From assembly GCA_050084515.1 (NCBI GenBank), contig CM114271.1, positions 26,846,001 through 26,910,000 of the forward strand: DNA of 64,000 nt, read 5' to 3'. This document shows, one piece after another, positions 8,601 through 58,103 of the stretch. The notes beneath the pieces are model-generated. The model was not told the origin of the DNA, did not search any database, and was given only the letters and a program-made list of their open reading frames with translations. The translations under genes and the position numbers were made by a program. The DNA comes from Blasia pusilla (lineage: Eukaryota). Positions within the stretch are counted from its first letter, which is position 1, and the number at the start of each line of letters is the position of its first letter.

Positions 8601-8756
8601 AGATGTAGATGAAGAAAATTCAGGAAAAATCGCTTTGAGAGAAAGAGTTCCCTTTGTTGAATTTCAAGTGATGGATACTTTTTTTTCCTTGGGAATTTTC
8701 TTCTTAGAAAAACACGAGTAGTTGTGTTTACATTTCTCTCTAAATCTAGGGTTATG

Positions 8757-14319: not shown

Positions 14320-14789
14320 TTTATTATTATAACTCATATCATTGTTTTCTCCTTCACATTCAATGCTTAACACCTATCACATTAATGATAAGAATCTTTT
14401 GTCGCTTAACCACAAATATTACATGGGTGTTTTTTAATTGAGGAAAGGCAATACCAAAATTAAATTATTGTTCCATCTACATAAACTATTTTCTTATAAT
14501 TAGTAATAAAAATAAATGAGTGTGTAGAAAAAGTTGAATTAGAGAAAAAAAAAAACAAAATCTTAGTATACCTTTTATGAAGGGCAACTTGAGAACAACT
14601 CACTTACTTATGGAACTATAATCTACATTTGTAGATAATATTTGACATCCAATTGCGGAAGGGAAGTAGGATGAGACGAATAAACTCGTTCAATTGGAAA
14701 TATGTTGGACTTGCGTCGCCATCACGTACATTGTTTTGGCCGCCACCGTCATCAACCAGTGATGGCATATGACCTTATGTTATAGTGTT

Positions 14790-17700: not shown

Positions 17701-20066
17701 AGAGGTATTCCAGTTGGTGAGTCCTGGAGGTAGAGCTTTTAGTCGGCAGCGCATCTTGTTGGATTCAAGAGCGCAACCCTTGATGTTGGGAAAGGCGTCA
17801 TTCAGAGGATTGGGCTTGACGAGAGCCGATGTGGAGTGTTGTCCATTCCGGATTCAGACATCCTTGGGTGGATCGAGTACCTCACAGTATATCACCCAAC
17901 ATGAGGTCGTGGTGAGAATTCGCCCGGGACATCCTACAGATGAGTCCGTGGTGCGAGCCAAGGCGATAGTGATTGATGCATAGTCCTACGACGTCTTGGT
18001 TGGTGGAGCAGTGTTATACCCGATGGGGTTTGCCCCGGATTATTGGGAGGAGTCAGCGTCCTACAGATCAGGATGATAGTCAGGTGATGGGCGCCTTAGT
18101 TCATTACTCATTCGATTCATAGGTCCAATGATTGAGCAACGGCTAGGAGAGATGGCGACCTTAGCAGCATTTAGCAATGCCATCACTTGGCCTAGGATTT
18201 GATTGAGGGACATATCCATGCAGAGGATACTCCCGTTCGTGATATTTCTATGGAGAGGAGTGTTATTGTAGCTGCATCATTCCGTGGAGGAGAGGTGCCG
18301 CTATGGGGCTTGACTGAGAATCTTTGACGATTGGCAGATGAGAACGTGCAGACCGCGTGGAGCGAGGCGTTTGCACCAGAGCGGGATGGGTCTGAGGAAC
18401 CCGAGGTAGCAGGGAGTGCTACGATGACATCCTTAGATACCACACCCATTGTGTGGTGTATCCTGGAGGAGGGTATCCGAGTGTTAGATCTCTTTGGAGG
18501 AATAAGCACCGGGTTATGTGTTGTTTTGCAAGCAGGAGTGCGAGTACAGCTGTACCTATATGTGGAGAGTGTTGATGTTGCGAGGCGCGTCTCACTACGA
18601 CATGTGGCACAGTTACGCCTCCGTTTTCCTGACTTATTGTCTGCGTCCGCGGTACAGGGATACCAGAGTTCCCTACCGAGGGATATTTCCTTGTTCGGGG
18701 CGTAGGACTTAGAGTGGGTAGGGACCATTGATTTGGTCATTGCCGGTTGGCCATATCAGGGCCAATCGAGTGCTGGACGAGGTAGCGGGTTGGTTGACAC
18801 TTGGTCCAGATTGTTTTGGGAGATGTTGAGGTTCTTACGGCAGTTGCAAGAGCACCTGTCTCGTTCTCCAGGCTACATTCTAGAGAATGTGCCGATCTAA
18901 GGAGACTCCAGGTCACGGGTGGTGACGAGTGCTCATCATGTGCATGCCTCGATCGGCCCAGCAGTGTTCTTGGATGCGGCGAGTGTAGGTTCTAGAGCCC
19001 ATCGCCCGCGTCTATGGTGGACCAACTTGTTGCCCCATGCGGTGTTAGGGAGGGCGTATGCGAGAGTGGAGCGCCCCTCCCATTTGTTAGTGGATTCCAT
19101 TCTAGATCCAGGTTGTCGATCACAAGCAGTGAGGCACGATGATCGACCACCGCTGACTGTGGTCAACAGGGTAGGCAGGCCGCCGACAGCCTTTCCCACG
19201 TTTGTGAGTTTTCTCGCTTCCTATGCATACAAGGAGGCCGCTCCTGGCTTGGTTTGGGATGACCAGGTTTAGAGGTTGGTGGAGCCCAACGCCGACGAGA
19301 GAGAGTGGGCGATGACGGCAATCTCGTCAGTATCTGAGGCATCACGACGCCATGTCTTGGGTCAGGCGATGGACTTGAACTGCTTGACATGGATCTTCAG
19401 CTTGGGGGTGGCTGAGCAGCGTCGGATGAGATCGCTACAGATCACAGCGGTTGCGTTGTGAGCCCCATGCCTACCGAGACGGTGGAGGCACTGGCTGGGG
19501 GCGAGACCCAAGGAGATTGACACACCAGGGGAGATTGAGAGAGACACCCTTGGACTTCTTGGGATGTTTTGCAGGTACGGCAGGAGATGATAGCCACAAC
19601 ATCGAGCGTGGTTGTGAGCACTGCATGTGGAGGAGATCAGAGTTTGCAGTTGGCTGCAGAAGACCAGCCGAGCGTTGATGTTCGAAACGGGGTTGCACCA
19701 TAGCAACCACCAATACCCGCGCCAGAGAGTGCTACCGTAGTCACGATGGAGACTTGGGAGCCAGATATGGGCCCTAAATTGACAGGAGTAGAGCGGCGCC
19801 GGATACATATGTTCCTCACGAATTATAGGAGTTGCTTTGCATTTAGCATGGAGGATTTGGGTACCCTGAAGGGAGCGGGTATCCGCATTTAGTTTTCGAG
19901 TGATACGCCAATCTACCGACAACCCTACAGGTACAGTGATATTGAGAGGGCTCTGATTCAGAGTAGGAGCCAGGACTTGGTCAGAGCAGGACTAGTGGAG
20001 ATGTCCGATGGGGAGTATGCATGTGCCACTGTCATGCGTGCCAAGAAGGATGTGCATGGCAACTGG
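14790..20066 (+). mobile_element. 3'-truncated Gypsy-type retroelement, gag-protease-DNMT3-like MTase-(start of RT); copy 1
   Basis: Gag (FQRRPGESLREAYTRLRRL; knuckle-like CWSCGGAHHQRDC); protease ILLDSRAQPLMLGK; MTase motifs at 18470-19400; RT start IYRQPYRYS..GLVE..EYACATVMRAKKDVHGN, then an abrupt break. Collinear with 47350-51660. 5' boundary approximate. Confidence 0.88.
18470..19400 (+). pseudogene. DNMT3-like C5 cytosine methyltransferase domain inside retroelement copy 1
   Basis: Motif I GIRVLDLFGGI; IV IDLVIAGWP(Y)QG with catalytic C mutated; LFWEMLR; VI YILENV; VIII AHRPRLWWTNL; IX/X EPNADERE..RRHVLGQAMD. Confidence 0.88.
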
Positions 20067-20474
20067 AGCCTAATTCAAAGATTAATTAGGCTCCATATTA
20101 TTTTTGAGAAAGTATGATCCATTATTTCACAAATGTATGATAGATAAAACACATGGAGATGCAAATATGGAGGGGGTTTCTTATCGTAAACCGAGATTTT
20201 ATGCATAAGACTAAGACAAGCATATCCATACAAAATTTCACCAACTTATCTTCACATATTAAAATTTTATTCAAAGAGAAAGAAGACACAACAAATGCTA
20301 TTAGATCTAAAAAGACTTCGACCCCAAAGGAAAGATAGATGTTTCCACTAACGCAACATCCGTGTCTTCATCATAATATGGAAGGGTTTTCCCGAATTTT
20401 ACTTAATTTATAAATATTAAAATCGTAAAATCTTAAAATCTCCACATTTTAGACAAATAATACTTTCGAAGATT

Positions 20475-39062: not shown

Positions 39063-39519
39063 GCTCTAGAGTAGAGAGCTCTGTCACAAAAATGTAAAGC
39101 TGCAACATAAGATGTGGCGGTCAGACAAATTCGGTGAGAGAGAGAGAGAGAGATCAAGAACTCTAACTTGAGTAAAGCTGGCCGAAATCAACGGATGCTC
39201 GTTGACAGACATACACTCGAGAGAGCCTCCGGTCACAACGCCGACTGTCCCAATGAATCTGAGCAACTATGAAGAAGACACCAGAGAATGTTCGCACGCC
39301 AAAATGAACTTTTCGAAGATGCTCACATGAACGGTGAACTGTGGGCCGTGGCTGCCGTGGGGTCTTTCCTTCCGCGCTAACGATGGAGCACAGATAGTAT
39401 CCGGCTCATCCGAGTAATGCAAAGTTGCAAACAAAGAAGAAAGGGAGAATGATTCGCCCCGGTACAACGACTGCGCGCACCATGATACGGAGGGAGTGGT
39501 GATTCTGGTGAAAGCAGCC

Positions 39520-40075
39520 CAACACACAACGCATTTTACGAATTACAGCATGGGACACGGAGTCTGGACAGGTGCAAAGCAGTGCAAGACAGGTGCAAAA
39601 TTGCTAATCAAGCTCGAGTCGCTCGCGCCTAAACCCGACTCGCCGATACTGGACTCGAGTCTAGAGTTCGGGCAACTTCGGAAGTTCGGGCCTTCGGGGA
39701 TTCGGGGAATGGATTCAATGGACCCCCTGCAGCGGCAGCAGCCCTCGGAGTCTCGGACGAGTCGGAGTCTCGGACCTCGGTCACTCCCACTCAGCGGCAC
39801 AGTTGAAAGCAGCTCAACACACAACGCATTTTACGAATTACAGCATGGGACACGAAGATTGGACAGGTGCAAAGCAGTGCAAGACAGGTGCAAAAATGCT
39901 AATCACGCTCTAGTCGCTCGACAGCCTCGACCCGCTCGAGTCTCGACAATCTGGACTCTGGGCAACTTCGGAAGTTCGTGGCTTCGGGCCTTCAGGGATT
40001 CGGGGAATGGAGTCTCGGACGAGTCGGAGTCTCGGACGGTTGGACCTCGGTCACCCCCACTCAGTGGCAATGCGG
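39520..40075. repeat. ~295-bp tandem duplication within the hAT
   Basis: caacacacaacgcattttacgaattacagcatgggacacg...ggagtctcggacgagtcggagtctcggac repeated at ~39520 and ~39815. Confidence 0.9.
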
Positions 40076-41799
40076 CACTCGTTCCCTAACATCCCTCCGG
40101 CCCTGCTTTGCGACTGCCCTACTTCGGACGGCCAAGATCTCCTCAAGAGAATCTAACGGTTCTCACGGGGTATCCGGTTTTCCGACCACCTGAAAGTGGT
40201 CCAGCAAAATACCGACCACCGTAAAATGCAATCCGGACGGAATCCGGGAGATGTGACCGGCGGCTGCCATATTCCGGCGTAGTCCTCCCGGGAAACGGCA
40301 TATTTCCGGCGCAAGAAATGCCGGCCATCCATTAACCAGAATATCCTCTGATGCCGTCGGAATCTTAGCCGGCTAATTTTCCTGGGCGTCGTCAATTACC
40401 GATTTTAACCGGCCAGCTTTACTCTAGTTGCCGGTTCTCCCCGGACGTTGAAGTGAGCTTAGAGTATTAAAAAGAGGTTCCAATTTTTTGCGTTAAAAGA
40501 GTTGAGTTTAAGTACAAAATGCATCACTTGACCCACCAATGGTATAAACCTTGGAATCATTGCCCTCACCAAGAGTTTAACCTGCCCTTGCACAACCCTC
40601 ATGGCATGCTGACGTAGGAAACCTGGAAATGCTAAATAAGGTCAAATAAACAAGCATGGAGCACTCCTTTCTATGATAATACTTAGGTAGTGAAATCCTA
40701 TCTCCCTAAATTTGACCTAAGTGGCCTTCCAACTTCTTGTGGTCCTTGTGTGGCATTCTCTTCCATGGTATTGGAATGCAAGCATATTGAACGTGTTGTT
40801 TCCATGTTATGATCATGGCCAATCAAGAATAAGATTCTTGTGTTGTGGCAAGTAGGTGACTCTGAAAATTGAAATTTTTTGCAATGGGTTATTTTTTCCA
40901 AGTCACTAGAAAAATCGAACCCATGATCAAATGTGTTGTGTGCATGCATGTCTTTACATAATATATATAGACATCATTGTCACCAAACACAAACTCAAGA
41001 TACCACATTCACTCGTGACATCCTGTCGCATGGACGATCTAGTATGAAAATATTTCTAATGAAGAGTCACTTTCCAAAATAGGAACTCAATTATGTTTCT
41101 ATGAAGAATAGATCCAAAATAGAAAAGTATTGAACATGGCAAAAAGGATAATAAACCAAGGAGAAAATGTTCTCTCGGATTGTCCTAATCCTCATCAAAT
41201 TATCTTTGACCTCCTAAAGTTGTCCTCTGACCTCTTCAAAGGCATCATACAGATACGTGTCGATTTGCTATAAAAGATGTGACAAGAAGCATAATTGTTT
41301 CTTGACTCTACCTACTTTGAAACAAAGACATAGTTCCAAGCTTGCCTCATGAGCTCGTCTATACTCCTCTGCAAGTCAAGGCATGTATCCCATAATGGTG
41401 TAGAGGTATTAAAATTATAGGAAGAAACATCCACCATGGCATATCTTCCCGTACAATGAAACATTCTTTTCCACGATATCCTTCTCATAGGGGTTTCCCT
41501 TCAATAGCTCTCCCAACGAACACATACTACTAATGAATGTTTCCAATGTGGTCACAATGTCTCATCGAAAACCACCATTATGCCTAAAAAATTGAATGAG
41601 AATATGGCTCAGTTGACCACTGATCATCTAATCGCCATCCCAATTGATAGGAAATTTTCTCCTCCCAAAAATTGAGGATGAAACGAAAGGGATATAACAC
41701 CATGCTCCCTACCAATACATTGTATGATTCTACTAGTGTCATGATCGCACGATCCATTGCATAATGTGGTTGGACTATAACAACTAACTCTTGTTGAGT

Positions 41800-44700
41800 T
41801 ATAAACTACTTGATGGAACAATCCCCATAGAGGTTTGTGTTGCAGAAAAGTGCAAAACAAGTATAATTGATGGGATACGGGTCTCAAACATACATACCAC
41901 CATGAAGAACAAAATTTTGCAATTAGAAAATGAATGGAGAGTAATCTCCTTCTCAATTATATAAGATATGTACAAGCAATCCTAACCCTAATCCTAACCA
42001 TAGTCTCAAATTATACTAACTATGGCTAACTAACCTTATTTAAGATAATCGTGCTTAACTAACTAATCAAGATTAAGTTTTCCTACTTCGTGTAAGTACC
42101 AAATATAGTAGTTCGTGTGTCTAATAAGCTTAACGATAACTGAGTCTTTAAAACTCTCCCTCAAGCTTATATCGATATCTCTAAGACCTAAATGGTTTCT
42201 AAACATCTCAAACTTATCTTTAAGCAATGTTTTTGTAAAGAAATGATAAATTTGTTTATATATATATATATAAAAGATCAATTTCTCCTGCAAACACTTT
42301 TTCTCTAATAAAGTGGCAATGCACCTCAACATATTTTTTTCGAGCTCTGATCTCTCCTCCTCCTAAGGCCACAAAAGCCTATTGCCTTATGGGCATGTTC
42401 CAAAATCATGGAGATCCGTTGTAGACAATAAAGCACTGGAGTAGCTAAAGCTAAACCCATTTCTAGAGAGAAGATTTGAGATCCTTTAGGAATGAGCGAA
42501 ATGTCTTCCTATAATCCCGTCCATCTTCATGGTTAGGAGAAAATTGCAATTGTAGGTTGCTTTTTTTAAGCCTAACTTATAATTGTGCTTTCGAAGGTGA
42601 AAGAATAACCACATGTAGAATGTCTATATAACATGTTTCCTACCCAATATTGATGTATCTCTGAATCCTTGTAATTGTAAACTCGGAGATGGTTCAAATT
42701 GGAGCCCAAACGAAACAAGGAATTTCATATATCTCATAATCTTTCTCAAAGCATCAAGATGTGGTTTTCGATAAGTTTCCATGAACAAGCTCACTATACT
42801 AACTGGGTAGCTCAAGTCCAGCCTAGTTATAGTTAGATAGATCAAACTTCCAACCATGCATCCGTACATATTAGAATCTGCAAGCAACTCTCATTCATCC
42901 ACTTTTAACTTGTCGTGCGTATACATATCGCTACACAACATACATCGCTCGTCACATCTACACCACACAACACCGATCTTCCCCACACACGGGTCGATCT
43001 ACACATGTACAAAAATCAACTCATACATATACATGAAGATCACACAACAATAAAGAATAGTAAAAATGGCACAACCTGGCTAAAACTCCACTCCTCAATC
43101 TACATCGGCATATCGAGCCTCGTCCACCCTGTGCTATCAAGGAATCCGGACGCTAGCACCCTAGTCCTAGCTCACACACATACAAGGGAGGTGCTCCAAC
43201 GGCCCAACATGAGAAAGATGGCTTAGGAAAGCCATCTTCCTCTCTTATATAGGTTGGGAAGAGCCAAAAGGCTCTTCCCCTAAGAATAGCCCTTCCCTTG
43301 GTAACCTACGAGCACAGGTTACCAGGGGCAGGTGACCTGGTCAACAAGTCACTCGGCTGTAAAAGACCTTAATATGAAAGTCGTCAGAAACGACGTTCTT
43401 GACACAATGGACCTATCCTCAACCTCATCCGACACTGTGGGACAAAGTTACACTCAAGATAGTTCGCTGGCTCCTACGCCCTATCCACGATAGATCTCGG
43501 CCTATCGGCTACTCAGATGTGACAAACTTCATACTTTACTCCAACAACGTAGAGATTGGCTTACAAGCCGTGATACCATATTTTTAATGTATATGAAGAG
43601 CATATTGTCGTTGTAATAACAACATGCTCTCTCCAACCGTAATAAACTCAACACCAAGAAAGTACTTGAGTTCTCATAAGTCCTTCATATCAAATTTTGA
43701 TTGTAGCTTTAGCATGACATGTTGTAATATATCCTCAATACTCCCAATAATCAAGAGGTTGTCAATATACACCATAAGGATAATCGTATGGCCTTCTCCT
43801 CTCAAGACATATGGCGAGGAATCAAAATCACAAACCTTAAAGTCAAGCTCCTAGAGGACATATGTAATCTTGCCATACCAAGCTCTTGGAACTTGCTTAA
43901 GCAAGTATAAAGCTTTCTTTAACCTACATATCTGGAATGGAAACTTATAATGCTTGTATCCAGGTGGTTGAGCCAAGTATATCTCCTTATGCAAATTTCT
44001 ATTCTAGAAGGCATTCTTAATGTCCATGTTAGATAGTCTTCACTTCTTACTTACTGCAACCATGTTCTCATAATGCTCATCTTTCGAACAAGGCTAAATA
44101 TCTTCTCATAATTGATGTCATATTGTTGTGTATAGCCCTTGGCTACCAATGTTTTTTTGCATCTATTCACTATACCATCTTGATTGCAAGTCTATATGCA
44201 ACCAATAGCTTACTTACTAAAAGATATATCAACCAACTCCCAAGTTTATTGATATCTTAACGCGCCAAACTCTTCCTACATACCTTCAATCTGTTCGACC
44301 TTACATGCTTCTTCTTCAAAACAACTCTATTCCTATTCTTGAAGAGCAATCATCATACATGCATCATGTATTGCAAAGAATCCTTCATTTATGAATCTAT
44401 GAAAAGGATGTGTGACTCTACTTGATCTATGAAGTTGATGTTCAAAGATTGAAGCCTTTGACATCTTACTTGACTTTTGACTAGTGTGAATAGATTGAGA
44501 CGTACTCTTCCCGACCATATATTGATAGATTTAACTAATAGTCTAGGACCTCTCTTAACCTTGCACTAGTACTTGGAGAATTTATAGACAATATATGTTG
44601 GTTTATAGTCATATCTCCCCCTCAACACACAAGTTTAGAGGTGGTATAGGCTCAAATGGAACATATCATGAATTCAACTGATAAAAAATAACACCCCGAC

Positions 44701-45510
44701 TAATAATAAGCTTCCTAGAGGTTGTAAATTAGTACTTTCATCCCTTAGTTCCATTAGCATAGCCAATGAAGATACATCTCTCAGATTTAAGAGCTAATTT
44801 TTGGCGTATTTTAGAAGGAACATGAGCATAATATTTATAGCCAAATACTTTCAAGAATGAAAAAATCAGGTTTATTTCATGTGAAGATTTTGAATGGAGT
44901 CTTATCATAAAGTCGTGTTGTTGGATTTTGGTTGATTAAGAAGACTATGCATGCTACAACATCTACCTCATATACCTTAGCAATGTTCTTCTCATGCAAC
45001 ATAGCACGTGCCGCCTTAATAATGTGTCGATTTTTCTACTCAACTTCTATATTTTTTTGTGGAATGTAACAACAAGTCCTTTGTCGTTGGATGCTATGTT
45101 GATATAAGTACGCAACCATTAAATTATATTGAAAGGTACTCTCCTCCTCCATCACAATGAAATTTCAAAATTTGTCCACTTTGCTACTCTATCAGAATTT
45201 TGAAAGTTTGGAACATTGAGAATACTTCTAATTTACCTTTTAGAAAGTATACCTAGAGAGATCATTAATAAATGAAACAAAGTATTGGCAACCACTAAGG
45301 CTATATTGTGATGTTGTCCACATATCATTGTAAACCAACTCAAATATCTTGGATGCTCTTCTATCTTGCTTTAGAAATGAAAATCTTGCATGTTTTCAAA
45401 ATTGGCAATCTGGAGATGTCTTTAACATAATATGACTCAATAATTTAGGAGTCCCATTACTAGATTAGATGAAGACTTTGCAATCTTTGAAGATTTATAC
45501 TCTATGACTA
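41800..45510 (-). mobile_element. Ty1/Copia relic, 3' part (integrase-RT-RNase H, PPT, 3' LTR), interrupted by a solo unit at 42911
   Basis: MVGSLIYLTITRLDLSYPVSIVS (Copia RT C-terminus); LKKALYLLKQVPRAW-like; D.GGEY and KSERCIFIGY-like integrase motifs; PPT ttgagggagag (minus) at ~42152-42163. Left boundary approximate. Confidence 0.8.
42911..43524 (-). mobile_element. Solo terminal-repeat unit (A+B, 614 bp) with 4-bp TSD, inserted in the Copia RT
   Basis: Termini TGTCGTG...GTGACA; AACT on both sides (42907-42910, 43525-43528). Inverted homologue of 57479-58103 and 55656-56269. Confidence 0.85.
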
Positions 45511-48500
45511 TGCGTATTGTCATGACCATACGGATTATGTCGTAGAGTATAGTGTGCTAGTAGAGGCCATACCTTATGTAGGGCCGTAGTGTCTAGGTAG
45601 AGGTGCGATTTCATAGATAGGGTTGGGGGTTACTTCATTGACAGTGAATTTTCCAGTAGGGCCCGCTCTTAGGTTGGAGGATATAGTATGGAGTGTACTC
45701 AAAGAACAATTAGTTCTTTGAGTTGAGCGTGTTGCGTTGGGAGTTAGCCTTGGTAGTGAGTAGAGCTCTTGGCTATGGTGGTTCCCACAAGCTTTGACGT
45801 GGATTCTCCCATCGTGGAGTGAGTTTAGCTCGATTTTATGTGATTCTATACGTGTTTTATGACAGTAGGTCTTTCACGGATTTCACTCAAAGAAATGGAG
45901 TAGATTGATGGTAGCTTCGATCGTGGATCAGTAGGATCTGGTTAGGGCTGATTGTGTACTCAACCATGAATGTTCTTGGCTTGTGGCTTATGTTAGAGGG
46001 GTGAATTTGGTTCGTGGTTGGTTGGGAAAGAATTGCCTTGCTGAGAGCTTTCCAACGCGCTTTAGATCTCCGGATTTCGTCAAGGGAGTTGGAAGTTATC
46101 AAGGATTGAAGATTCTGGTTCGTGTTTGACGGTTTTCTGATGTGGAGAGCTTGGAGTGCGGAAGCTCTGTTGAAGTTCATCCAGATTGGGTGAGAGGTTC
46201 TTGTTGCTACCTGTATTTTGATCTCATGTGAAGCTATCTGCTTGAGTGTGTGGAGCATTTTGGATTTCTGTGTGCATGAATCTGGGCGGAAGCGCTGTCG
46301 GATTTGCGATGTTGGAGGTGTATAAACAACAAGTTTGTCTGAGTTTTAGCTCGGAGTAAAGAGCTTGGTTGTAGCTGATTTTTCGTGGAGAGATAGCTAT
46401 GGTGGCCAATTGAATTCTGGTCAAAACAGATTCAATTTTGGTTGAGGATTTGTGGAGTAATTGCTGATCAAAATTTTGTAGACTAGCTCAAGGTCTCGCT
46501 ATGGTGGACAACAGATCTGAGGGGCTGGCTGGTTGGTTGGTGACTCGTCCATTGTACCCGATTGGGTGCGCCTTGGTTGGGCTTCTCTCCATAGCAAAGC
46601 ATGGTGAAGCGTGGCGAACGGGGCATGTCTCGGCGTTTTGAGGCTTCGAGGCAACTCGTGGTAGCTCGGGGCGGAGTAAGGAGCAAGGAGCAAGCAAGCA
46701 AGCTTGCTTGCTTGGGCGTGAGGCAGTTTTTGCAGGATTTGTGAGTTGAGTGTTGCATAACGGGTCACCCATATTTGGGCTATTCTGCTTGGAAGACGCT
46801 TGACTGCTGAGTTCTTAACTATGCTAGTGTATACATTGGTGTAGCTCATTTGGTGCTATTTGGAGATGTGTTAGGCGCTTTATGCATCTCGGGTTTCCGG
46901 TTGATGGACCTCTAGCGCAAAGTACGGTGTGGTCTCTCCATGCAGGTGATATTTACATGTGCTGCGAGTGCGACTAGCACGTCATCGACCAACGGCGGAG
47001 TAGCTATTGCGTTAGAATTGTGTGGTGGGTTCTGTGGATTCAGGGGGTGCCACGTTTGGTGGATTGTTTTACCTTGATTTCCATTAGCGATTGGAGGGTT
47101 GTCATTGGACTTCCTGTGTTTGGATCCCCTCCATCGTTGCTTCTTGCTTGCGCGCCCATTGTTAGGATTGATGCTCATTTCCAGAGTAGTGTTACTCCTG
47201 TGTGCTACCGGTAGTGAGGCTGGAGTGATGAGGAGTAGATCGTGGGAGGCTTCTTGTGGTGATGATAGGTTAGGTTGCCCATACCCATAGCTAGTAGATC
47301 TAGAATAGTACAGCGACATCGACATCACTTGGTTACTTAGTGGTGGTGCCGCATTGGCGTTGATCATCATGGAGCTGTCTGGTGGTCTGGTTGGGGACCG
47401 TGGTGTGGACAATGATGGTTTTACACAGAGTGGATTGAAGTATCGGCTACCTTTCCCACTTCCGACGGTTAATGAGGAGGAGGACGAGGGTGTTCCAAAC
47501 ACCGAGTCTTCTACGTTGTTATCGAGTGTTGCAACTCCATTGATTTGGGACATGGACGGGATATATGGGGCCATGAAGGGCCCACGATAATACTCGGGTG
47601 CACTGGGCACCATTGAGTTGGAGGACTTCAATTAGGAGTTTGATACGTGGTGTGATATGCAGATGTTGCGGAATGCCACGTTGTTTACACCCTTCTTGGC
47701 TTGGAAGGGGTCTATCATCCATGGTGGTATTGGTAGTAGTGCTCCTACTATGCCAGCCAGCCCGACGTTGAGTGGTACAAGTACAAGCCGGAGTGGAGGT
47801 ACCCATGGAGGTACCAGTGGGGGTACTAGTGGAGGTACTAGTGCCCCACCATTGCTAAGCCCGGTTGTAGAGTTCTTCAAGAGGTTGAAGAAGAACTATC
47901 AGGGAGTGAAGACAGAGAAGTTGAGGAGTCTTCACGAATTTGAGCGAAAGACTGGTGAGAGTCTTCGTGAGGCATACACTTGTATGCGACGCTTGATTTC
48001 AATTATCCAAGGTGTGATTGAGGCTCACGCAGTCCACTCTTGGTATGGGATCTTGGACAGAGAGTTGCGCCGCAGGGTACGTGATGCTACTCTTATGAGT
48101 GATGATTCAGCCACATTGGGCCTTGTGTTTGCTATATCTGAGAAGATTGAGCTTAACATGGTGGAGGAGAGAGTGGTGACATCCGCTTTCAGTAGGATAC
48201 AACAACTACTTCTTGTGTTCAGCAGTCCACCTCACAATCTCGTAGTAGTGATGGTGGTAGTAGTAGTGGGAGTCGTGGGGGGTACACACGACCTCAGTGA
48301 GGTCCTAGAGGGACACTTGCGCAGAGACCATTGCCTTCATTTGCTGCCCTGCAGCAAGGACAGTCATGTTGGACATCTGGAGGTGATAATGTCAAGAGGT
48401 TTTGTGCCCAAGAGGATGGAAGACGGACTTTGGAGGATGGGCCTCAGTCAACCCCAACTCATTGTGATCATTGTGGGAGACCAAGTCATCCTTGAGAGCG

Positions 48501-50099
48501 TTACTTTGATCTTCATCCAGAGTTGAGATTAGGCCGTGGCCGTGGTGGAGAAGCTCCGAGAGGCCGAGGTGTTACAGGTGGTAGAGGTGGACCAGCGGTT
48601 GGAGAGCCTACGGTCGTACCACTACAATAGACTCAACTAAGGCTGCCAGGACTGAGCAGTTGAAGCAGAGGTTGGCTACTATGGCTAGTATCCAACATAG
48701 AGCAGGTTTGGGAGGAGGGGCAACCACCTCTTATGGAGGAGATGATCTCTCTTATATGGTGAGTGCAAAACAAGTTGGGGCATCAACTGCAATTATGAGA
48801 GGAGCCAGTCGAGCGTCAGAGCCACGTGGTGCTACTGTGGAGTTGGACCCACATAGGGGTGAGGCTGGGAGGCAGGCTAGGCTCCCCCAGTCATTCTTGT
48901 TGTCTGAGGTGCGTAGGACTCCATCCATGGTTCCTACGTAGCCTATTGAGCCGACAGTGGGGACTGAGGCATCTACATCGCGTGTAGTAGACACGGATGC
49001 AACATCCAGTGCAATATTGCGGATGGCAACTTTAGTGTTGGGATCCCCATTGTTTTCAACCACGGAGCTGATGGCTTTAGGAGTTGACTTAGCTCATGTA
49101 TTTCAGCTAGCAACCACGTTGTGTAAACCTAGGGGTGTTACTGCTACACGTGCTGAGGTGGATGAGGGTGTTGGGATGGAGCGACCCTCTATGTCAGGTG
49201 TAGCATTGAATACCAGTGCTACTTGGCAAGCAACAACGGCGAAGATGGATGCATTACCAGCCCGGCCAGCCATTGATCGTGAGAGGCTTACACCTGATGT
49301 ATGTATGTTGGACAACCGAAGTGGAATATTCCGATTGGTGAGTCCTACAGGACAGGTGTATAGACCAGATAGAGTCTTGTTAGACTGGAGTGCACAACCT
49401 TTGATGTTGGGAAAGGCGACATATATTGGTTTGGGTAATTGGAGGTTAGAGCTTGAGCCTTGCCCATTCTAGATTCAAACATCACTTGGAGGAGCCAATG
49501 ATAGGTCTCAATTTATGATACGGGAGAAGTTTTCTGTACAGTTGAGACCAGATCATGCGACATATAGCTCCCGGTTGGGAGTACGTGCAGTGGTCACATC
49601 AGCCGAGTCGTATGATGTACTAGTTGGAGGAGCAGTATTGTACCCGATGGGTTTTCATATGGACTACTGGACTAAGACAACGTCTTATAGACCTGTTTGG
49701 CAGTTCGGGGATGGACGTATGAGCCAGGTTCCTATGAGATTTATTTATGGGGCTCGACCAGGAGGGTCTTCCCCAACGGTGTTAGCATCTGTGGCTGGTT
49801 TTTGTGGAGTAGTCACTTGGCCAGGAGACTTTTTGGAGGGTTATGTTTCTGCTATGGATTCTCCTGTGCATGAGGAGGTCCCTAGTTTTGCAACAGTGGT
49901 ATCCTCATCGTTGGATGTGCCACTTTGGAGTTCAGGCGGTGCACTATGGGAGGAGGCTGATCGCCTGGTGCAAGAGGCTTGGTGTGAGGCTGTTATACCT
50001 CACGAGGAAGAGGAAGCTCCACGACGGACTCCTACTTCTAGTCCAGTTGGGTAATCCTCTTTGGATACTACACCCAGTATATGGCAGTATCTTCCGGAG

Positions 50100-51050
50100 G
50101 GCATTTGTGTGTTAGATCTCTTTGGTGGGATTAGCACTCGTTTGGATGCAGTGTTACAGGCCGATATTCCTATACGGAGATACGTGTATGTGGAGCGAGA
50201 TGAGACGGCCCGGAGAGTCTCATCCCGACATATTGGTCAATTGATGCGGAGATATCTTGAGTTGTTGCCACCATCAGCTATTCGTGGGTACCACCGTGCT
50301 TTACCGTCACACATTGCATTGTTGGGGACGTAGGACCTTGAGAGGGTTGGTCCTGTGGATTTGGTGATTGCTCGATGGCCATGTCAGGGTCATACACGAG
50401 CTGGTCGTGGTGAGGGATTACACGACCCTCGGTCTCGATTGTTTTGGGAGATGTTATGGGTGTTACGACATCTTCAGATTCATCACGCACGTGCTCTAGC
50501 TTACATTATGGAGAATGTTCCATTGTTGGGTGACATTCAAACTCGGATGATGGCGAGTGTTCATGAGGTGCGGTCTTGGATTCGACCAGCGGTGTTGTTG
50601 GATGCAGCGCGAGTTGGCTTGCATGCACATCGTCAACGCTTGTGGTGGACAAACTTGTTGCCTAGGGAGGTTCTACATCGAGCATATGATGCAGTGCAGC
50701 GGGATCCTTGCCTTACAATGGATACTATCTTGGATACGGGGCGACTTTCTCAAGTGGTGAGGGTTATTGATGGGTCACCCATGGTAGTGGTGAACTATGT
50801 GGGCCAGCCTAGGATGGTAGTACCCACATTTGTGAGTTTTCCCTCGTCACATGCCTACAGGGAAGGTGGTCCCGGGCTTGTATGGGATTCTCATGTGCGA
50901 CAGTTGGTAGAGCCTAACGTTGATGAGAGAGAGAGCGTGCGATGGGATTTGCTATTGGTCTGACAGCGGTTGCTTCCATTTTTGAGGCTTCACGACGTCA
51001 TGTGTTGGATCAGGCCATGGACCTGAATTGTTTGACCTGGATTTTGAGTC
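50100..51050 (+). pseudogene. DNMT3-like C5 cytosine methyltransferase domain inside retroelement copy 2
   Basis: GICVLDLFGGI (I); YVYVE (II); DLVIARWPCQGH (IV, catalytic PC kept); LFWEML; YIMENV (VI); AHRQRLWWTNLL (VIII); EPNVDERE/MGFAIGLT..RRHVLDQAMD (IX/X). Confidence 0.9.
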
Positions 51051-54000
51051 TTGGTATGGGCAAGCAACGTCGACTTCGGACTATGTCTGTGGGTCTTCCA
51101 CCCCTTGTGATGAGCTCGATGGCTACCGGGACGGTAGAGACATCGGTTGGGGGCGAGGAGAATAGTATTTTGCATCCTTGGAGTAAATAGGATGTAATGG
51201 CTGGGCATGTGGAGTTGGTTGCTCATGCTGGTGGAGGAGTTATTTGCTTAGATGATAGTGTAGCTAAGGATGTACCATCTTGTGAGGGGGTTGCATAGCA
51301 TCCAATGGCGTCATCCTCTCCCTCTAGTGTGCCAGTGGAGGAGACTTGGGAGCCATTACTTTGGCCCAAGCTTACGGGAGGTGAGAGACGACGCTTGACA
51401 CAGTTCCTACGTGCTTATAGGAGTTGTTTTTCCTTTAGCATGAAGGAGTTGGGTGCTCTGGTTGGACCCGATATACGGATTGATTTGGCTAGTGATATGC
51501 CAATCTTTCGTCGTCCCTACCGATATAGTGATATGGAGAGGGACCTAATTCAGAGTAGGACGTTGGACCTTTTGGAGGCTGGATTAGTGGAGTTGTTGCA
51601 TGGAGAGTATGCATCAGCCACTATCATGCATGCTAAAAAGGATGTGCATGGCAACTACACGGATAGGCGGATGTGTGGAGATTATCGTCATATCAATCGG
51701 TAGACCAAGGCCGATAGGTATGCCTACACATGAGGAGATCTTTGGTATGGTGGGACAGGCAATGATTTTCAGTACTTTGGATCTTCCGGCATGATACCAT
51801 CAGTTGACGATTCGAGAGAGTGACAAGGCCAAGACAACATTTTGGGGTGTCAACTCTCATGGCAAGGATTGTTTGTACCAGTGGAAATTCTTACCCTTTG
51901 GGTTGAAGAATGCACCTACCGAGTTTCAGAGAGTGATGGATAGGATCCTAGCAGGGTTGGATTTGTTTGGTGTTACATTGATGATATCTTGGTGTTCAGT
52001 AACACGATGGAGGAGCATCAGATACATTTGCAGATTGAGCGGTTGAAAGCTCATGGTCTACGTTTGCATCCAGGAAAGTGTAAGTTCTTCCATAAGGATG
52101 TTGAGTACTTGGATCATGTGATCTATACAGGTGGGTTGGGAGTTCAACAAGCAAAGGTGGAGGCTATTGCATTTATTCCTCGTCCGGTAGATGTGAGTAG
52201 AGTTCGGGCATTCATGGGATTGGCGAACTACTATCGGAGGTATGTGAAAGGATTTAGTGCTATGGCAAAGCCTTTGAACCAATTGCTGAAATCCGATCAT
52301 GAGTGGCGTTGGGGAGATGATCAGGAGAGAGCTTTTGTGGAGCTCAAGGCCTAGTTGGTGGTGGCGCCTATCTTGAGGAGACCTATCAGAGGGCGCCCAT
52401 TTCAGTTACACACTGATTGGAGTAGGTTGGGACTTGGAGCGGTGTTGACACAACATGATGATGAGCACATGGAGTTTGTGGTGGCCTATGCAAGTCGTTC
52501 AAATAATGCAGCAGAGTCGCGCTATAGTCCATATGAGGGAGAGTGCTTGGTAGTAGTGTGGGCTGTGGCACACTTTAGGTGTTACTTGTTTGGCACACAG
52601 TTTACCCTTGTTACTAATCACCAACCGCTCAAGTGGTTGATGAGTCTGACAAGCTTACAAGGAAGCTTGCACGGCGGGCTCTTATCTTAGAAGAGTATGA
52701 CTTCCAGGTGGTACATAGACGTGGAGTTGCCAACCTTGATGCTGATGGGTTGAGTAGGAACCCATGTACTAGCCAAGAGGATGCAACTGGGGCTAGATGG
52801 CATGGCGAGGTTGATGAGGAGATGGTGCCAGGTTGGCATGCATCCACCTTTTTATGTTGGTTAGGGGTGGACTCTAGTATGGAGTCCACCCCTAACATGA
52901 CATCTTATTCTAGTCAGAGGGTAGATGGCTAGCCTTCAGATCCGAAGGTTGGAGATGGTGGTACGGATTAGCGTGATATTCATGATGATGCGTTGGTGTT
53001 GGAGTTCCTACGGACCACTAGGGTGCCACGCATAGTGAGTGCCAAGGAGCGAGACTGTGTTCTTCAACTTGCTAAGAGGTATCGATTGGAGGGAACACAT
53101 ATTCTCCGTGTGTGGGAGGATGGTAGAGTACGAGTAGTGCCGCATTTGGCTCAGAGAGAGCGCATTGTGCGACATGCCCATGAGGAGTTGGGACATTTTG
53201 GGGTAAAGTGTACGTATAGCTTACACCTTCGTCAGTATTGGTGGCGTGGCATGCATACTCAGGTGCAGAAATTGGTGTCACATTATATGGTTTGTGATTG
53301 GGTGAGGGCATCATTCAATGCCCCTACACCACAGTTACACCCCTTGCCTATTATGGGGTTGGGTTATCGTTGGAGTGTGGACTTTGAGGGACCGTTATCG
53401 TTGAGTGTACGACATCATCGATATGTGTTGATGATGGTGGAGCACTTCTCCAAGTGGATTGAGTTGGTGGCATTACCTGACAAGGCAAGTGAGGGAACGG
53501 CGTATGCGTTTCTTGATAGAGTGCTTAGTCATTTTGGTGCACCAGATGAGGTGCTGACGGACCAGGGCACAAAGTTTCAGGGTGAGTTTCAGGTCTTGTG
53601 TGACAAGGCGTTGATTGATCATCGGACCACGTCTCGAGATCATCCAGAGGCGGATGGTTTGGTTGAGCGTGTGGTTCAGACGGTGAAGAGGGCATTGCGC
53701 AAATATGACATACAGAAGAGGCATCTTGGAGACTAGGATATTCAGTTGCCATGGTTAGCCATGGGGTATAGGTTCAGTTGCCAAGGATTCTTGGCTTCCT
53801 TCTCACCTTATTTTCTGTTATACGGCCTAGATCCAGACTTGCCAATAGCAATTTTTCGGGAGTCTAGTGAGGTGGTGAACCTTGATGACCCAGAGATGTG
53901 GATGAGAGTGTGTTCTCAGCGGGCAAAGCTCTTTCGGAGAGTTATGCCAACAGCCTTTGAGAACCTTGCCATTGCTCAACATAGGGATACGTTGCCGTAT

Positions 54001-54276
54001 GCAACCATTCGGGGTGGAGGTTATCGACCATCGATTTGTAGGTTCCATGTGGGGGACTTTTTCTATTTGCAGTAGATTGCATCGACAACGTTGGATCTGA
54101 CGGCATGCCGCACTGTTTTACGAGTGCGCGAGGTGTTAGCTTCTGGAGTTCTCATGTTGGAGGGTCGTGATGGAGTTGTTTGGAAGGACCATGTGCGTAA
54201 TTGTGCGCCATGTCATCTTCCAAATGTGGATGGTACTGTTGACCCAAGCTTAGCCATGATACGTGCTAGCTTGAGG

Positions 54277-54418
54277 TGCATGTTGTGTGGGTCTCACCGG
54301 TAACGGCCGTATGTTGTTGGTGTGTGATCGGTGTTCTACGGGTTGGCACATGATGTGTTTGACTCCACGTATGGATGTTGTTTGTATTGGAAGGTGGGTT
54401 TGTCCTCGATGTACTTAG
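54277..54418 (+). pseudogene. PHD finger at the integrase C-terminus
   Basis: CMLCG then, after a frameshift, MLLVCDRCSTGWHMMCLTPRMDVVCIGRWVCPRCT*, a C4HC3 pattern with the typical W.CP.C end. Confidence 0.85.
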
Positions 54419-55168
54419 GAGAGGTAGATGACTTGATCTTTGCGTGATATGGATTGCAGATACGCGACTAACGATGGGGCAACCTAGCACCCGACCTTCT
54501 GATTCGTGCACCCAAGAAGGTGTATAGCATGTAGTAGATGTATAGGGCTACCTGGGAGTTAAAGGGACCTAACCACCAGTTTGGGGGGCGAGTTGTGGTA
54601 CACTTGTGTTTGTGTATTCTCTCGTCTATGTTATGTATGTATGTGAGTATGGTATGTCAACGTATATGTATGGATGTGGATTCACGCACATTTGTATCAT
54701 GACCATACGGATTATGTCGTAGAGTATAGTGTGCTAGTAGAGGCCATACCTTATGTAGGGCCGTTGTGTCTAGGTAGAGATGCTGTTTCATACATAGGAT
54801 TGGGGGTTACTCAGTTGAGGGTGACTTTTCCAGTAGGGCCCGCTCTTAGGTTGGAGGATATAGTATGGAGTGCACTCAAAGAACAATTAGTTCTTTGAGT
54901 TGAGCGTGTTGCGTTGGGAGTTAGCCTTGGTAGTGAGTAGAGCTCTTGGCTATGGTGGTTCCCGCAAGCTTCGACATGGATTCTCCCATCGTGGAGTGGG
55001 TTTGGCTCGATTGTATGTGATTCTATACGTGTTTTATGACAGTAGGTCTTTCACGGATCTCAATTGTGGTACACTTGTGCTTGTGTATGCTCTCGTCTAT
55101 GTTATGTATGTATGTGAGTATGATATGTCAACGATGTATGTTGTATGACGATGTGGATTCATACGACA

Positions 55169-56269
55169 ATGGAGTCAGTTGACAATGGAGTCATGCTCTT
55201 GGACTAGAGACTTGATATCTTTGGATACCACACCTGTTGTGTAGCAATGTCTAGAGGAGGATGTGAGAGTGTTAGATGTCTTTGGAGGGATCAACACGGT
55301 GGGTAGCTTAAATATTGCAAGATAACATCCGGATACGTTGATATCTCTAGGTGGAGATAGATGAGATGGATCCGAGGAAGAGTATATGTTGGTAGATGTT
55401 GCGGAGATAATGGCATCGACGATGCTAGATGTGCTTAGAATAGTAGATTATGTTAGGTATATGTGATGTTTACTATTAGGAGTTAGGGGCATCCAACTAC
55501 CAGCTAGGAGGGTGGTTGTGTGGTCTCGATAGATATGTGTGAGTATATTTTGCTTATTAGTGGATCGGCCCGTGTGTTGGGAAGATCGGTGTTGTGTGGT
55601 TTGTAGATGTGATCAATGATGTGGATTGTGTAGCGATGTGAATGTGCACAACAAGTGTCTCATCTTAGTTAGCTTAGAGATAGAGTTCTACGACGTCGAC
55701 GATGTAGAGGGCCAACGAGAAGTTTGGCTATAACTTTGTCTCGAGATGTCAGACAAGGTTGACGAGTGGTCTCTTGTGTCGGGAATGTTATTTATGGCAA
55801 TTTCCCTTTTTTTGCTATTTTTGGCCTGATGACCCGTTAATCGAGTTACATGGTCATGTAGTAACCTATGCTGGTAGGTTGCGGTTTGGAGGCTATTTTT
55901 GGGGGAAAGAGCCAAAAGGCTCTTCCCAAGGCTATAAGAGAGGGAGCGATAGCATTTCCAAGCCATCTTTCTCATGTTGGGCCTTAGAAGCACCTCTCTT
56001 GCTTGTATACATAGGAACTAGGGTACTACTGTCTGGATTCCCTCATAGCAGAGGGTGGATGTGGCTCAATATGTTATGTAGATTCAAGAGTGGAGTTTCA
56101 GGTCATGTGAGCCATTTTTATTCTGATTTTGTTGTGTGGTCTCAATGTATATGTGTGAGTATATTTTTTTTATGAGTGGTTTGACCCGCGTGTTGGAAAG
56201 ATCGGTGTTGTATGATGTGTAGATCTGACTAGCGTTGTGGATTGTATAGCGATGTGTATGCGCACGAAA
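55169..56269 (+). mobile_element. Internally deleted third member of the MTase-Gypsy group with B1-A2-B2 3' end
   Basis: SLDTTPVV*QCLEEDVRVLDVFGGINT (MTase motif I) at ~55220-55300; a short post-integrase-like fragment at ~55400; PPT-like ctaccagctaggagggtggt; B1 55517-55653, A2 55656-~56130, B2 56133-56269. Confidence 0.78.
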
Positions 56270-56289
56270 CACACATCGCTATACAAACC

Positions 56290-57470
56290 AAACTACCAAA
56301 GTGAAATCAATCACTATATGCACAAAAAAAATTACAAAGTTAATTCGTAATTCCTTCAACTTACCAAACTAGGAAGGGAAGTAAGTCACTACACATGGGA
56401 GAAATTGAAAGGGCACTTACACCATAAAAGGAAATTCATACTTACCAATTGGTTACACTTAAGTGAAAGTGGTTTATTGTAAATCATGACATAATTTTAG
56501 TTTCTAAGGAATTTTAATTGGTTAACTTGCCTCAAAACACCATAATAGATTGAAGGTCAATTATCTAATTGATGTGTAAGAGAAATTGAAGGAAGGAAAG
56601 GGTAGTCAATTGTCAAAGAGAAAATGAAAGAAAGAAATTATACAAATCACGTTTTTTTGCATTTTCACTCATCAACGTAATCAATACTAGTTTTCATGTT
56701 ATCATATCAAATTTTCCTATTGGTCTTGAGCAACTTGTTGTCCTTTATAACCAAAGACCGTCTTTCTTCTTGGCAATTTGAAATTGATCTATGCCATCCA
56801 AAATGCATGTCAACACCTTCAAATTACTTATCATGTTGCAAAAATCCTTCATAGGCATTATTGTAAATCTCAAGCCCTACTTGTGAGGGTCCCTAAAGCC
56901 AAATGTGTTACTACTAGAATGCCCACCTGAAAGATTGATAAAATATGAGGCAGGTAAAAGCATCCCAACGCAACTTCTCCAAAATCCAAATAAGCATTGG
57001 TGATTGGATATAAAACTTATTTTTACTATTAAGGTAGCAAGTTTCTTTTTCGAATGGAAACTCACTTACCAAAGGAAGTAAAGACTACTAAAAATAAAAA
57101 GGATATGTAATAAGGCACTAGAAGGGATTGAGGATTCCTTGCGGCTCCATTGCTAGTCCATCATAAGTCGACTTTTGCCAGTCTAATGTCTATGTGTGTG
57201 TCTCCTCGCAACTTTGCAAGTCCGGATAGTCTTTTTGCCATTGTGACCATAGTGACTTGCAAATGAACGTGTGAGTTAGACTTGTGATTTGTGACTTGCA
57301 TTCGAGTCGTACGAGACTCGTGAGTCATGAGTCCCGTGACTCAGAACTTATGAGTCATTTGTGAGTCTTGAAACTCCTAAATTGATGTTTGTGAGTCCTA
57401 GAACTAAAATATGGGCCATGAGTTTCCCTTTAGCCTCCAAATCGCTTCATTTTCTCTTTTCCTCCTAACT
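56290..57470 (-). mobile_element. Probable 5'/gag part of the Copia relic
   Basis: Degenerate gag-like minus-strand translation in the same orientation as 41800-45510. No intact ORF. Confidence 0.45.
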
Positions 57471-57478
57471 TTGCGAGA

Positions 57479-58103
57479 TATCACACCTTAGTAACTGATA
57501 GGTAGAGATCTATCGTGGCGGAGATATAGAGAGCCAGTGGATTGTATTTAGTGTAACTTCGTCTCGAGGTGTCGGATGAGGTTGAGGATAGGTCTGTTGT
57601 GTCAGGAACGTCATTTTTAACGACTTTCCTATTTGGGTCTTTCACAACCGGATGACTTGTTGAGCAAGTCACCCGCGCTCGGTAACCTATACGCGTAGGT
57701 TACCAAGAGGATTGCTATTTTTAGGGAAGATGTGGGAAGAGCCTTTTGGCTCTTCCCACATCTATATAAGGGAGAGAGATGGCTTTCCCAAACCATCTTT
57801 TTCATGTTGGGCGGTTGGAACACTTCTCTTGTTCGTGTATGAGATAGGACCAAGGTGCTAAGGTCCGAATTACCTGATAGTAGAGGGTGGACGAGGCTCA
57901 ATATGTCGATGTAAATTCAGGAGTGGAATTTTAGGAGGAATGTGCCATTTTTACTCTTATTTTTATTGTGGGGTCTTGATGTATATGCATGAATTTGTTT
58001 GGTTTATGAATGGATGGACATGTGTGTTGGGAAGATCGGTGTTGTGTGGTGTGTAGATGTGACCAACGATGTGGGTTATATAGCGATGTGTATGCGCACG
58101 ACG
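57479..58103 (+). mobile_element. Solo terminal-repeat unit (A+B, 625 bp) with 4-bp TSD
   Basis: Termini T(A)TCACA...GCACGAC(G); GAGA on both sides (57475-57478, 58104-58107). Collinear with 55656-56269. Confidence 0.83.

Follow-up and report, generated by a model that had tools for sequence, protein, structure and literature searches.

How does a retroelement come to combine a DDE integrase with split direct repeats, which are treated as a hallmark of tyrosine-recombinase elements, and how would such an element be copied and inserted? The question is raised by an element at positions 45518 to 55168 of a 64,000-nucleotide stretch of DNA from Blasia pusilla (GenBank assembly GCA_050084515.1, contig CM114271.1, positions 26,846,001 to 26,910,000 of the forward strand), hereafter called the window. 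In the accepted view, long terminal repeat (LTR) retrotransposons and retroviruses integrate linear complementary DNA (cDNA), and the primer site and the polypurine tract (PPT) determine where that cDNA ends. An earlier note on the window described repeats in the order A1-body-B1-A2-B2 around Gypsy-type coding sequences, and proposed a possibly undescribed class of integrase retroelement with a non-canonical replication route. On the evidence of related insertions, junction reads and domain searches, we lean modestly toward a model in which reverse transcription would yield cDNA with LTRs of the form B-J1-A, the integrase would cut at the internal junction J1, and two forms of insertion would result.

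The four repeats delimited in the earlier note are real. When the window is compared with itself by blastn, A1 (45518-45885) pairs with 54697-55062 at 94.5% identity over 366 nucleotides (nt), and B1 (54593-54684) pairs with B2 (55064-55161) at 89.8% identity over 98 nt. Together with base-by-base reading, this comparison gives the following terminal features.

45518..45885, + strand: A1, the left terminal repeat, which starts with TGTCATGACC, ends with GGATTTCA, holds a TATA-like box and a hairpin, is 94.5% identical to A2 and aligns with the A repeat of relatives.
54583..54592, + strand: the PPT, GGGGGGCGAG, read base by base, which adjoins B1 on its upstream side.
54593..54690, + strand: B1, the internal B copy, which starts with TTGTGGTACAC and ends with CGCACA.
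54691..54692, + strand: the 2-nt spacer TT of the B-to-A junction, J1.
54693..55062, + strand: A2, the second A copy, delimited by blastn and base-by-base reading.
55063..55063, + strand: the filler base A of the A-to-B junction, J2, within ...TCA-A-TTGTGG.
55064..55168, + strand: B2, the right terminal B copy, which ends with CATACGACA; in other copies, B joins A at exactly that point.

The A2 copy carries a 2-nt insertion after TGT, which explains why its start had been placed at 54695. No B was found upstream of A1: the 168 nt there align locally to B with scores of 22-29, compared with 24.9 +/- 4.7 for 200 shuffles, and so the left end indeed holds A only. The imperfect inverted repeat that had been noticed from the letters consists of the two outer ends, TGTCATGA... 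and ...CATACGACA, and the PPT-like tract noticed at the same time is the one that stands straight before B1. This copy is dead, with many stops and frameshifts, and it is old, as A1 and A2 have diverged by 5.5%.

We also considered the idea that the element runs on past B2, which came from the resemblance of ATGGAGTCAGTTGA, after B2, to ATGGAGTAGATTGA, after A1. It was dropped on two grounds: a pattern search gave one match where 3.5 are expected by chance, and relatives end at B2, with target-site duplications there.

A copy in this condition invites the explanation that its layout is a one-off, in which a canonical two-LTR Gypsy copy lost its left B and gained a partial tandem LTR on the right, or in which the arrangement is an assembly artefact. 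The age of the window copy, its want of a target-site duplication and a fragment of a related element lying less than 50 nt after B2 are all in keeping with such a history. What decides the matter is whether other copies share the layout. An alignment of 18 integrases led to 414 related metagenome stretches, of which the best 80 (L001-L080), all from short-read assemblies, were kept. These loci were annotated by self-comparison and with A, B, leader and PPT-side queries, which gave matches in 60 of the 80.

The A and B pieces of the related loci are recognizably the same sequences as in the window, and the PPT side runs directly into B in 47 of these loci. The right end reads B-J1-A-J2-B in 16 loci, which have 11 distinct flanks and are counted as 11 insertions. 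A shorter right end, in which B is followed by unrelated flank with no second A or B, is present in 25 loci that have at least 300 nt of contig left, and these represent 20 distinct insertions (a 26th such locus, with only 128 nt of contig left, shares its flank with one of the 20). Ten loci are unclassed, as the contig ends in B (L017, L068, L069), A-B is present without a detectable B1 (L051, L062), A2 is truncated (L063, L064), or the locus is diverged or lacks a recognizable B (L012, L058, L070). At the left, 17 loci hold A plus the leader; L004 and L006 share a flank, and L010 and L011, which have a 5'-truncated A, were set aside, leaving 14 distinct complete left ends. None of these 14 has B or A-B upstream of A. 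Two complete, identical LTRs around the body, as Ty3/Gypsy elements have, are found neither in the window copy nor in the 11 related insertions. Complete LTRs in other copies were what the earlier note had named as evidence against its reading; instead, B is absent from every left end and the B-A-B arrangement recurs in 11 insertions.

In L028 and L032, a copy of A with the primer-site motif but no leader lies at 8735-9071, about 1 kb upstream of the integrase and inside another copy. This A copy is a nested or truncated insertion.

Target-site duplications immediately outside the start of A and the end of B, which the earlier note had suggested looking for, are likewise present in the relatives. 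Six loci have clean duplications at four of four positions (AAGG, AATC, TACA, TGTT, ATTA and TACA), and three more do so if the first bases of A are taken as mutated or degenerate (TCTC in L008, TGTG in L054 and AATG in L065). L046 matches at three of four positions and L059 has no match. Overall, 9 of the 11 loci with both ends carry 4-bp duplications, and the probability of at least nine arising by chance is below 1e-14. The relatives thus have the TGTC...GACA ends and short target-site duplications of Ty3/Gypsy elements, from which it follows that insertion is by the DDE integrase. Across the relatives, the integrated unit is either A-body-B-A-B or the shorter A-body-B.

Reads from the same species label carry the comparison back to the host. 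Contigs of three DNA runs (X1, X2 and X3) and raw reads of one RNA run (X22) were placed on positions 45000-55700, and they show a high-copy family. The best-supported joints connect 55168 to 45517/45518, separated by GC (or by G or C alone), in X2, X3 and the RNA run X22, and are represented by a contig word depth of 455 in X3 and about 600 in X2, which is a measure of coverage and not of copy number, as well as by about 70 RNA reads. We read these joints as the internal B-to-A junctions of better-preserved copies, and not as circles of the window copy. In these other host copies, J1 is GACA-GC-TGTC, a perfect palindrome. The general pattern is ...CACGACA-NN-TGTCATGACC..., where NN is AC, GC, AT or GT in relatives and TT in the window. 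J1 consists of both integrated ends plus two unconstrained bases, which together form the palindrome GACA-NN-TGTC.

In the three independent DNA runs and the RNA run, the end of B and the start of A coincide exactly with the outer ends of the window copy. This agreement, the same layout and breakpoints in 11 distinct insertions on independently assembled contigs, and the failure of a canonical left LTR to appear at any of the 14 left ends together refute the one-off explanation, to which we now assign almost no probability.

The layout alone would suggest a second explanation, in which the element replicates as PAT, Ngaro and DIRS elements do. A partial RNA would be completed from B1-A2 into a circle, insertion would be the work of a recombinase (either a tyrosine recombinase supplied in trans or an unrecognized enzyme), and the integrase would be a passenger. 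A passage of PMC4157794 defines the PAT-like, Ngaro and Viper tyrosine-recombinase elements by precisely these split direct repeats, A1...B1-A2-B2, and in that group (with TOC1) the internal B1-to-A2 junction equals the two outer ends joined, as it does here. Furthermore, the Symbiodinium DIRS-Dnmt3 elements, as presented in PMC5890265, have the same kind of methylase and A-coding-B-A-B repeats. The coding body of the present element bears on this explanation, and its features are as follows.

45896..47551, + strand: a long leader with no Pfam match in any frame.
47552..48940, + strand: a gag-like region, broken by stops, whose translation (DGIYGAMKGPR..EFDTWCDMQ) matches the N-terminus of Marchantia proteins P0004 and P0017.
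48942..50054, + strand: a protease-like region, with VLLDWSAQPLMLGK in the window and VLLDSGAQPLMLGK in relatives.
50055..51190, + strand: a DNMT3-type C5 cytosine methyltransferase domain (PF00145, E 8.9e-07), with one stop and a later frameshift.
51299..52354, + strand: reverse transcriptase (RT), spread across three frames (PF00078, RVT_1).
52310..52690, + strand: Gypsy-type RNase H (PF17917 and PF17919, RT_RNaseH and RT_RNaseH_2; E down to 3.8e-29).
52972..54075, + strand: DDE integrase, with an H2C2 zinc domain, an rve core and a C-terminal extension (PF17921, PF00665).
54281..54412, + strand: a weak PHD finger at the integrase C-terminus (PF00628, E 2.2e-4; 21.6 bits, below the Pfam cut-off of 24 bits).

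From this content, the element is best classified as a degenerate Ty3/Gypsy-type LTR retrotransposon with the order gag, protease, DNMT3, RT, RNase H, integrase and PHD. The succession of RT, RNase H and DDE integrase on the + strand, with an RNase H of Gypsy type, is that of Ty3/Gypsy elements, and PF00145, located between the protease-like region and RT, puts a DNMT3-type methyltransferase inside a Gypsy Pol, as in Gypsy-DNMT3 elements. The gag match P0004 is labelled a CCHC-type domain protein in UniRef, and PF13650 precedes the methylase in relatives P0153, P0156, P0157 and P0159. Compared with solved structures, the methylase has 29 matches, every one of them to DNMT3A, 3B or 3C. The methylase is 57-74% identical to proteins of Marchantia, Calypogeia and Sphagnum, the integrase is 57-84% identical to the integrases of the metagenome loci, and the closest named relatives of the two come from Marchantia polymorpha, Calypogeia fissa and Sphagnum species (57-89% identity). 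Although the PHD match is weak in the window, PF00628 after rve is precomputed in many relatives. In chromoviruses, a chromodomain occupies that place after the integrase, and the PHD finger may be a targeting module that reads chromatin.

When the window copy was scanned against Pfam in all six frames, with each stop replaced by X, there was no match to PF00589 (Phage_integrase) at E <= 0.01, and the minus strand has no Pfam match at all. The earlier note was therefore correct in seeing Gypsy-type RT/RNase H and a DDE integrase without a tyrosine recombinase, but it had overlooked the DNMT domain and the weak PHD finger. One further observation concerns the integrase region, where 16 RNA reads with 11 start places skip 1008 nt, from 52936 to 53945, with CA..TA at the ends of the skip. 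The reads could come from a family member that has an internal deletion and is transcribed, or from non-canonical splicing.

Other features of the element also set it apart from tyrosine-recombinase retroelements, which to our knowledge make no target-site duplications of the 4-bp kind seen at 9 of 11 loci. Its TG...CA ends have inverted terminal bases, its integrase is conserved at 57-84% across loci, and its PPT and primer-site motif are placed as an LTR element requires. In addition, the methylase of DIRS elements is a Dam-like domain, whereas that of the present element is of the C5 DNMT3 type. Given the absence of a recombinase match in the window copy as well, we regard a DIRS-like route as very improbable despite the shared repeat layout.

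If the element is instead an LTR retrotransposon, then its PPT and primer site should reveal where RT places the LTR edges, since in LTR reverse transcription the PPT sets the left edge and the primer site sets the right edge. The PPT is clear and conserved. Two features of the left end bear on the primer.

45697..45723 (in A2, about 54874-54900), + strand: a hairpin, ACTCAAAGAAC-AATTA-GTTCTTTGAGT, inside A1, whose 3' arm is complementary to the motif after A1.
45886..45895, + strand: a primer-binding-site-like motif, CTCAAAGAAA, right after the CA that ends A1.

Among the 17 related loci with A and the leader, 15 have CTCAAAGAAC after the end of A with at most two mismatches. This sequence is identical to the 5' arm of the hairpin and complementary to its 3' arm. 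The hairpin, of 10-11 bp, is kept in most relatives about 20-25 nt downstream of a TATAAA box. No tRNA-type TGG... site is conserved after A among the related loci, and the 10-nt post-A motif is not of tRNA type. A candidate tRNA primer site, TGGTAGC, located 22 nt after A1 (and also at about 14826, in a second element of the window), was rejected on finding that it is not conserved in the metagenome relatives. Self-priming from the 5' region of the transcript itself is known from the Tf1/sushi group. The minus strand of the present element is probably self-primed too, because the hairpin arm to which the motif is complementary lies close to where transcription is likely to start.

Because the PPT adjoins the start of B and the primer-like motif adjoins the end of A, each end of the cDNA is expected to carry the LTR B-J1-A. 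Relative to that product of reverse transcription, the integrated copies are circularly permuted and opened at J1.

The other junction, J2, carries traces of how the ends of this product might meet. In relatives it reads ...TTTTCA-G-TTGTGG or ...TTTTCA-A-TTGTGG, and the PPT reads ...GCGAG-TTGTGG. The G form therefore matches a blunt joining of the A end to the first base that follows a cut within the tract. In one locus, J2 contains an insert of 21 nt whose final letters, CGAG, are also those of the PPT, and one X1 contig joins the end of A to B with a different filler. RNA reads show that the family is transcribed in sense (first mate on the minus strand) at a depth of 20-157; 39 of them run from the PPT into a B variant, and 32 connect the end of B to an A variant by way of GT. 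We also observe that B is GT-rich and lies next to the A end TTTTCA, and that TGTATGTGTTTG and TTTTATGATAG precede this end. B2 might be a downstream element that helps to form RNA 3' ends where A2 stops, which would give the extra B a function.

The whole model that we modestly favor can now be set out. Reverse transcription would flank the body with two copies of an ordinary LTR, B-J1-A. Instead of using these RT-made ends, the integrase would cut each strand of J1 after its CA, which would leave 5' overhangs of 2 nt. Such a cut in a one-LTR circle or in an open-circular intermediate would give A-body-B, and a molecule in which the end of A is joined to the start of B at J2 would give A-body-B-A-B. 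J2 might stem from a two-LTR circle, from a template switch between the two ends, or from end-joining by the host once the left LTR has been cut. Only A-body-B-A-B would still have an A downstream, which supplies the promoter-proximal part and R, and only this form would therefore be able to replicate and found a lineage.

An alternative dispenses with the circle. In a linear route, only A-body-B-A-B would be inserted, RT itself would make it as linear cDNA, and A-body-B copies would be deletions between the 115-bp B repeats. For example, the last-finishing plus strand could switch from the end of A onto the finished start of B and halt at J1. Several observations suit this route. The reciprocal form A-B-A-body-B is absent (0 of 14 left ends), and a directional polymerase fits this absence better than a random cut in a circle does. 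Moreover, B1-A2-B2 is a partial tandem duplication and hence able to collapse, and the J2 fillers of 0-1 nt and the one templated insert suit template switching as well as they suit end-joining.

The abundance and distribution of the two forms speak to whether the short one arises by such collapse. A-body-B is the commoner form, at 20 versus 11 distinct loci, and the older clade is not significantly richer in it than the younger one (13 of 19 versus 7 of 12; Fisher p = 0.71). Eleven loci were assembled twice, from two samples, and each of them has the same form both times; six of these are A-body-B, which argues against collapse of B1 and B2 by the assembler. In long copies, the longest stretch over which B1 and B2 are identical measures 19-65 nt. 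In a maximum-likelihood tree built from the integrase-to-B1 region of the 31 distinct loci and the window, which is star-like, the two forms are interspersed, with 11 label changes compared with about 10 after shuffling. This interspersion suggests that both forms come from one source. Within copies, A1/A2 identities (86-94%) and B1/B2 identities (88-96%) are similar, which suggests that the two repeat pairs are of the same age. L001 (A-body-B) and L003 (A-body-B-A-B) are 99.4% identical as far as the end of B1, beyond which they diverge; this pair, which may represent young sister insertions or else a contig of chimeric origin, is not counted as evidence. Finally, the linear route still requires a precise stop or cut at J1. 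Overall, we judge it to be rather unlikely, although it is a good deal easier to entertain than the DIRS-like route.

A number of points weigh against the model with integrase cleavage at J1 that we favor. The primer site is not of tRNA type, and for that reason the LTR made by RT is delimited with less certainty on its right than on its left. The pile of RNA read starts at 54856 is upstream of the TATA-like box and is perhaps an alignment edge, and it is not taken as the start of the transcript. All 11 full-length metagenome copies that were inspected are degenerate, with no open reading frame across the polyprotein. The terminal branch lengths of the two forms are alike (Mann-Whitney p = 0.23), which does not separate the forms and counts neither for nor against collapse, and the A-body-B copies could be later B1/B2 deletions instead of primary products. 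The window copy has no matching target-site duplication, with GTAT on its left and ATGG on its right. Furthermore, if a two-LTR circle were cut at random at either palindrome, A-B-A-body-B should be as frequent as A-body-B-A-B, and its absence from 14 left ends has a probability of about 0.01 from the counts. Every mechanistic step is inferred from the anatomy of junctions.

Two of these points can be taken further. An 80-nt fragment of a related element, which matches the start of the DNMT domain, lies at 55218-55298 (+ strand), about 50 nt past B2, and its position implies a rearranged neighborhood. Another fragment, at 41623-41841 (- strand), matches the open reading frame of the protease region. 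These nearby fragments and the missing duplication suggest that the window copy sits in a rearranged transposon graveyard, and local rearrangement accounts for the absent duplication. The absence of A-B-A-body-B, in turn, means that an unexplained directional step is needed. Perhaps the last-finishing plus strand alone switches onto the finished left end. Or perhaps only the left palindrome is cut, with both products held in one integrase complex while the host joins the end of A to the start of B. A non-canonical replication route for this element is something we continue to infer, but on much better evidence than was available to the earlier note.

How new is such an element? Foremost among its known counterparts is KnitGypsy-Dnmt3 of Klebsormidium nitens, a Gypsy element whose DIRS-like repeats are noted in the legend of Fig. 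4c of de Mendoza et al. 2018 (PMC5890265). It resembles the present element in having a Gypsy-type Pol that encloses a DNMT3-type methyltransferase, and in combining A-coding-B-A-B repeats with Gypsy domains. Hence, the combination that the earlier note took as a possibly undescribed class had already been recorded in print. The two differ in host, which for KnitGypsy-Dnmt3 is an alga, whereas the present element is of bryophyte type, with relatives in Marchantia, Calypogeia and Sphagnum. They differ also in what has been reported: the main text of PMC5890265 does not deal with target-site duplications, junction anatomy, an A-body-B form, a PHD finger or a mechanism for KnitGypsy-Dnmt3. The words 'PHD', 'target site' and 'circular' do not occur in that main text, and its single mention of TSD concerns Symbiodinium LINE elements. 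None of 66 protein matches to the present element is a Klebsormidium-named protein, although most matches are unnamed; common descent of the two is putative. A 2026 preprint (bioRxiv 10.64898/2026.05.21.726589) names 'streptophytes (Gypsy-DNMT3)', and the passages that do so do not treat termini.

Our literature matches, as listed by titles and the starts of abstracts and with subscription journals outside their coverage, include no evident case of an integrase-bearing LTR element with 'split direct repeats'. The same listed matches hold no description of the termini of a bryophyte Gypsy-DNMT3 family, and the name 'KnitGypsy' was met in a single publication. The element is accordingly a new bryophyte-type member of the Gypsy-DNMT3 kind, whose odd termini have been noted once in print and never analysed. 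What is added here is the layout across many insertions, the 4-bp duplications at split ends, the palindromic B-to-A junction, the A-to-B junction that resembles a circle junction, the A-body-B class without repeats, and a testable model in which integrase acts at an internal palindrome.

Comparison with better-known systems places these features more exactly. Canonical Ty3/Gypsy elements, including Tf1/sushi, share with the present element the order of protease, RT, RNase H and integrase, a PPT, short target-site duplications, TG...CA termini and possibly a primer from the 5' end of the transcript. Unlike them, the present element has no complete left LTR, its integrated ends lie in the middle of the LTR as the PPT and primer site define it, and its family has a second class of insertion that is without any terminal repeat. 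PAT-like, Ngaro, Viper and TOC1 elements share the split direct repeats, but the present element differs from all of them in having a DDE integrase, 4-bp duplications, TG...CA ends, a PPT and a primer-site motif and in its lack of a tyrosine recombinase. A third comparison is with foamy virus, where integrase is reported to cleave the palindromic LTR-LTR junction of two-LTR circles. There, too, a CA-spacer-TG palindrome cut after each CA gives two recessed 3' ends that are ready for strand transfer. In the present element, however, the palindrome is built in between B and A, and it would be a regular rather than an occasional source of ends.

The window holds several further features. A second, diverged Gypsy-DNMT element lies at 14700-20070 (+ strand), with a protein identity of 36-64% from gag to the start of RT and a PF00145 match. 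It breaks off at about 20070, at the edge of AT-rich DNA, and because the right end is missing its repeat layout is unreadable. A PIF1-like helicase with stops, at about 12600-13900 (+ strand; PF05970 at 2.3e-34, and PF21530), may be left over from an element of Helitron type. To the right of the main element, at 55511-58101 (+ strand), there are two families of direct repeats, one of 141 nt present three times and the other of 81 nt present twice, with spacings of 616 and about 1833 nt. In addition, two 117-nt direct repeats at 39509-39920 (+ strand) are 295 nt apart and 94% identical.

These findings have consequences for how such elements are found and classified. Programs that search for LTRs will miss or mis-split them, and A-body-B copies offer no LTR pair for dating. 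The enzyme of integration cannot be predicted from repeat layout. The family also provides a natural system for asking whether an integrase is able to use a palindromic junction regularly as its substrate, and its DNMT3 domain and PHD finger mean that it bears on how transposons engage with host chromatin.

We put forward only tentatively, and with less assurance than the model itself, the broader proposition that a streptophyte clade of DDE-integrase elements integrates from a built-in, att-like palindrome in circular or end-joined cDNA, that it has abandoned its RT-made ends, and that of its two types of insertion only A-body-B-A-B replicates. If true, this would be a natural and obligatory version of the long-discarded idea of the 'circle junction as integration substrate', and it would make the family a convergent, integrase-based counterpart of the replication of DIRS and PAT elements.

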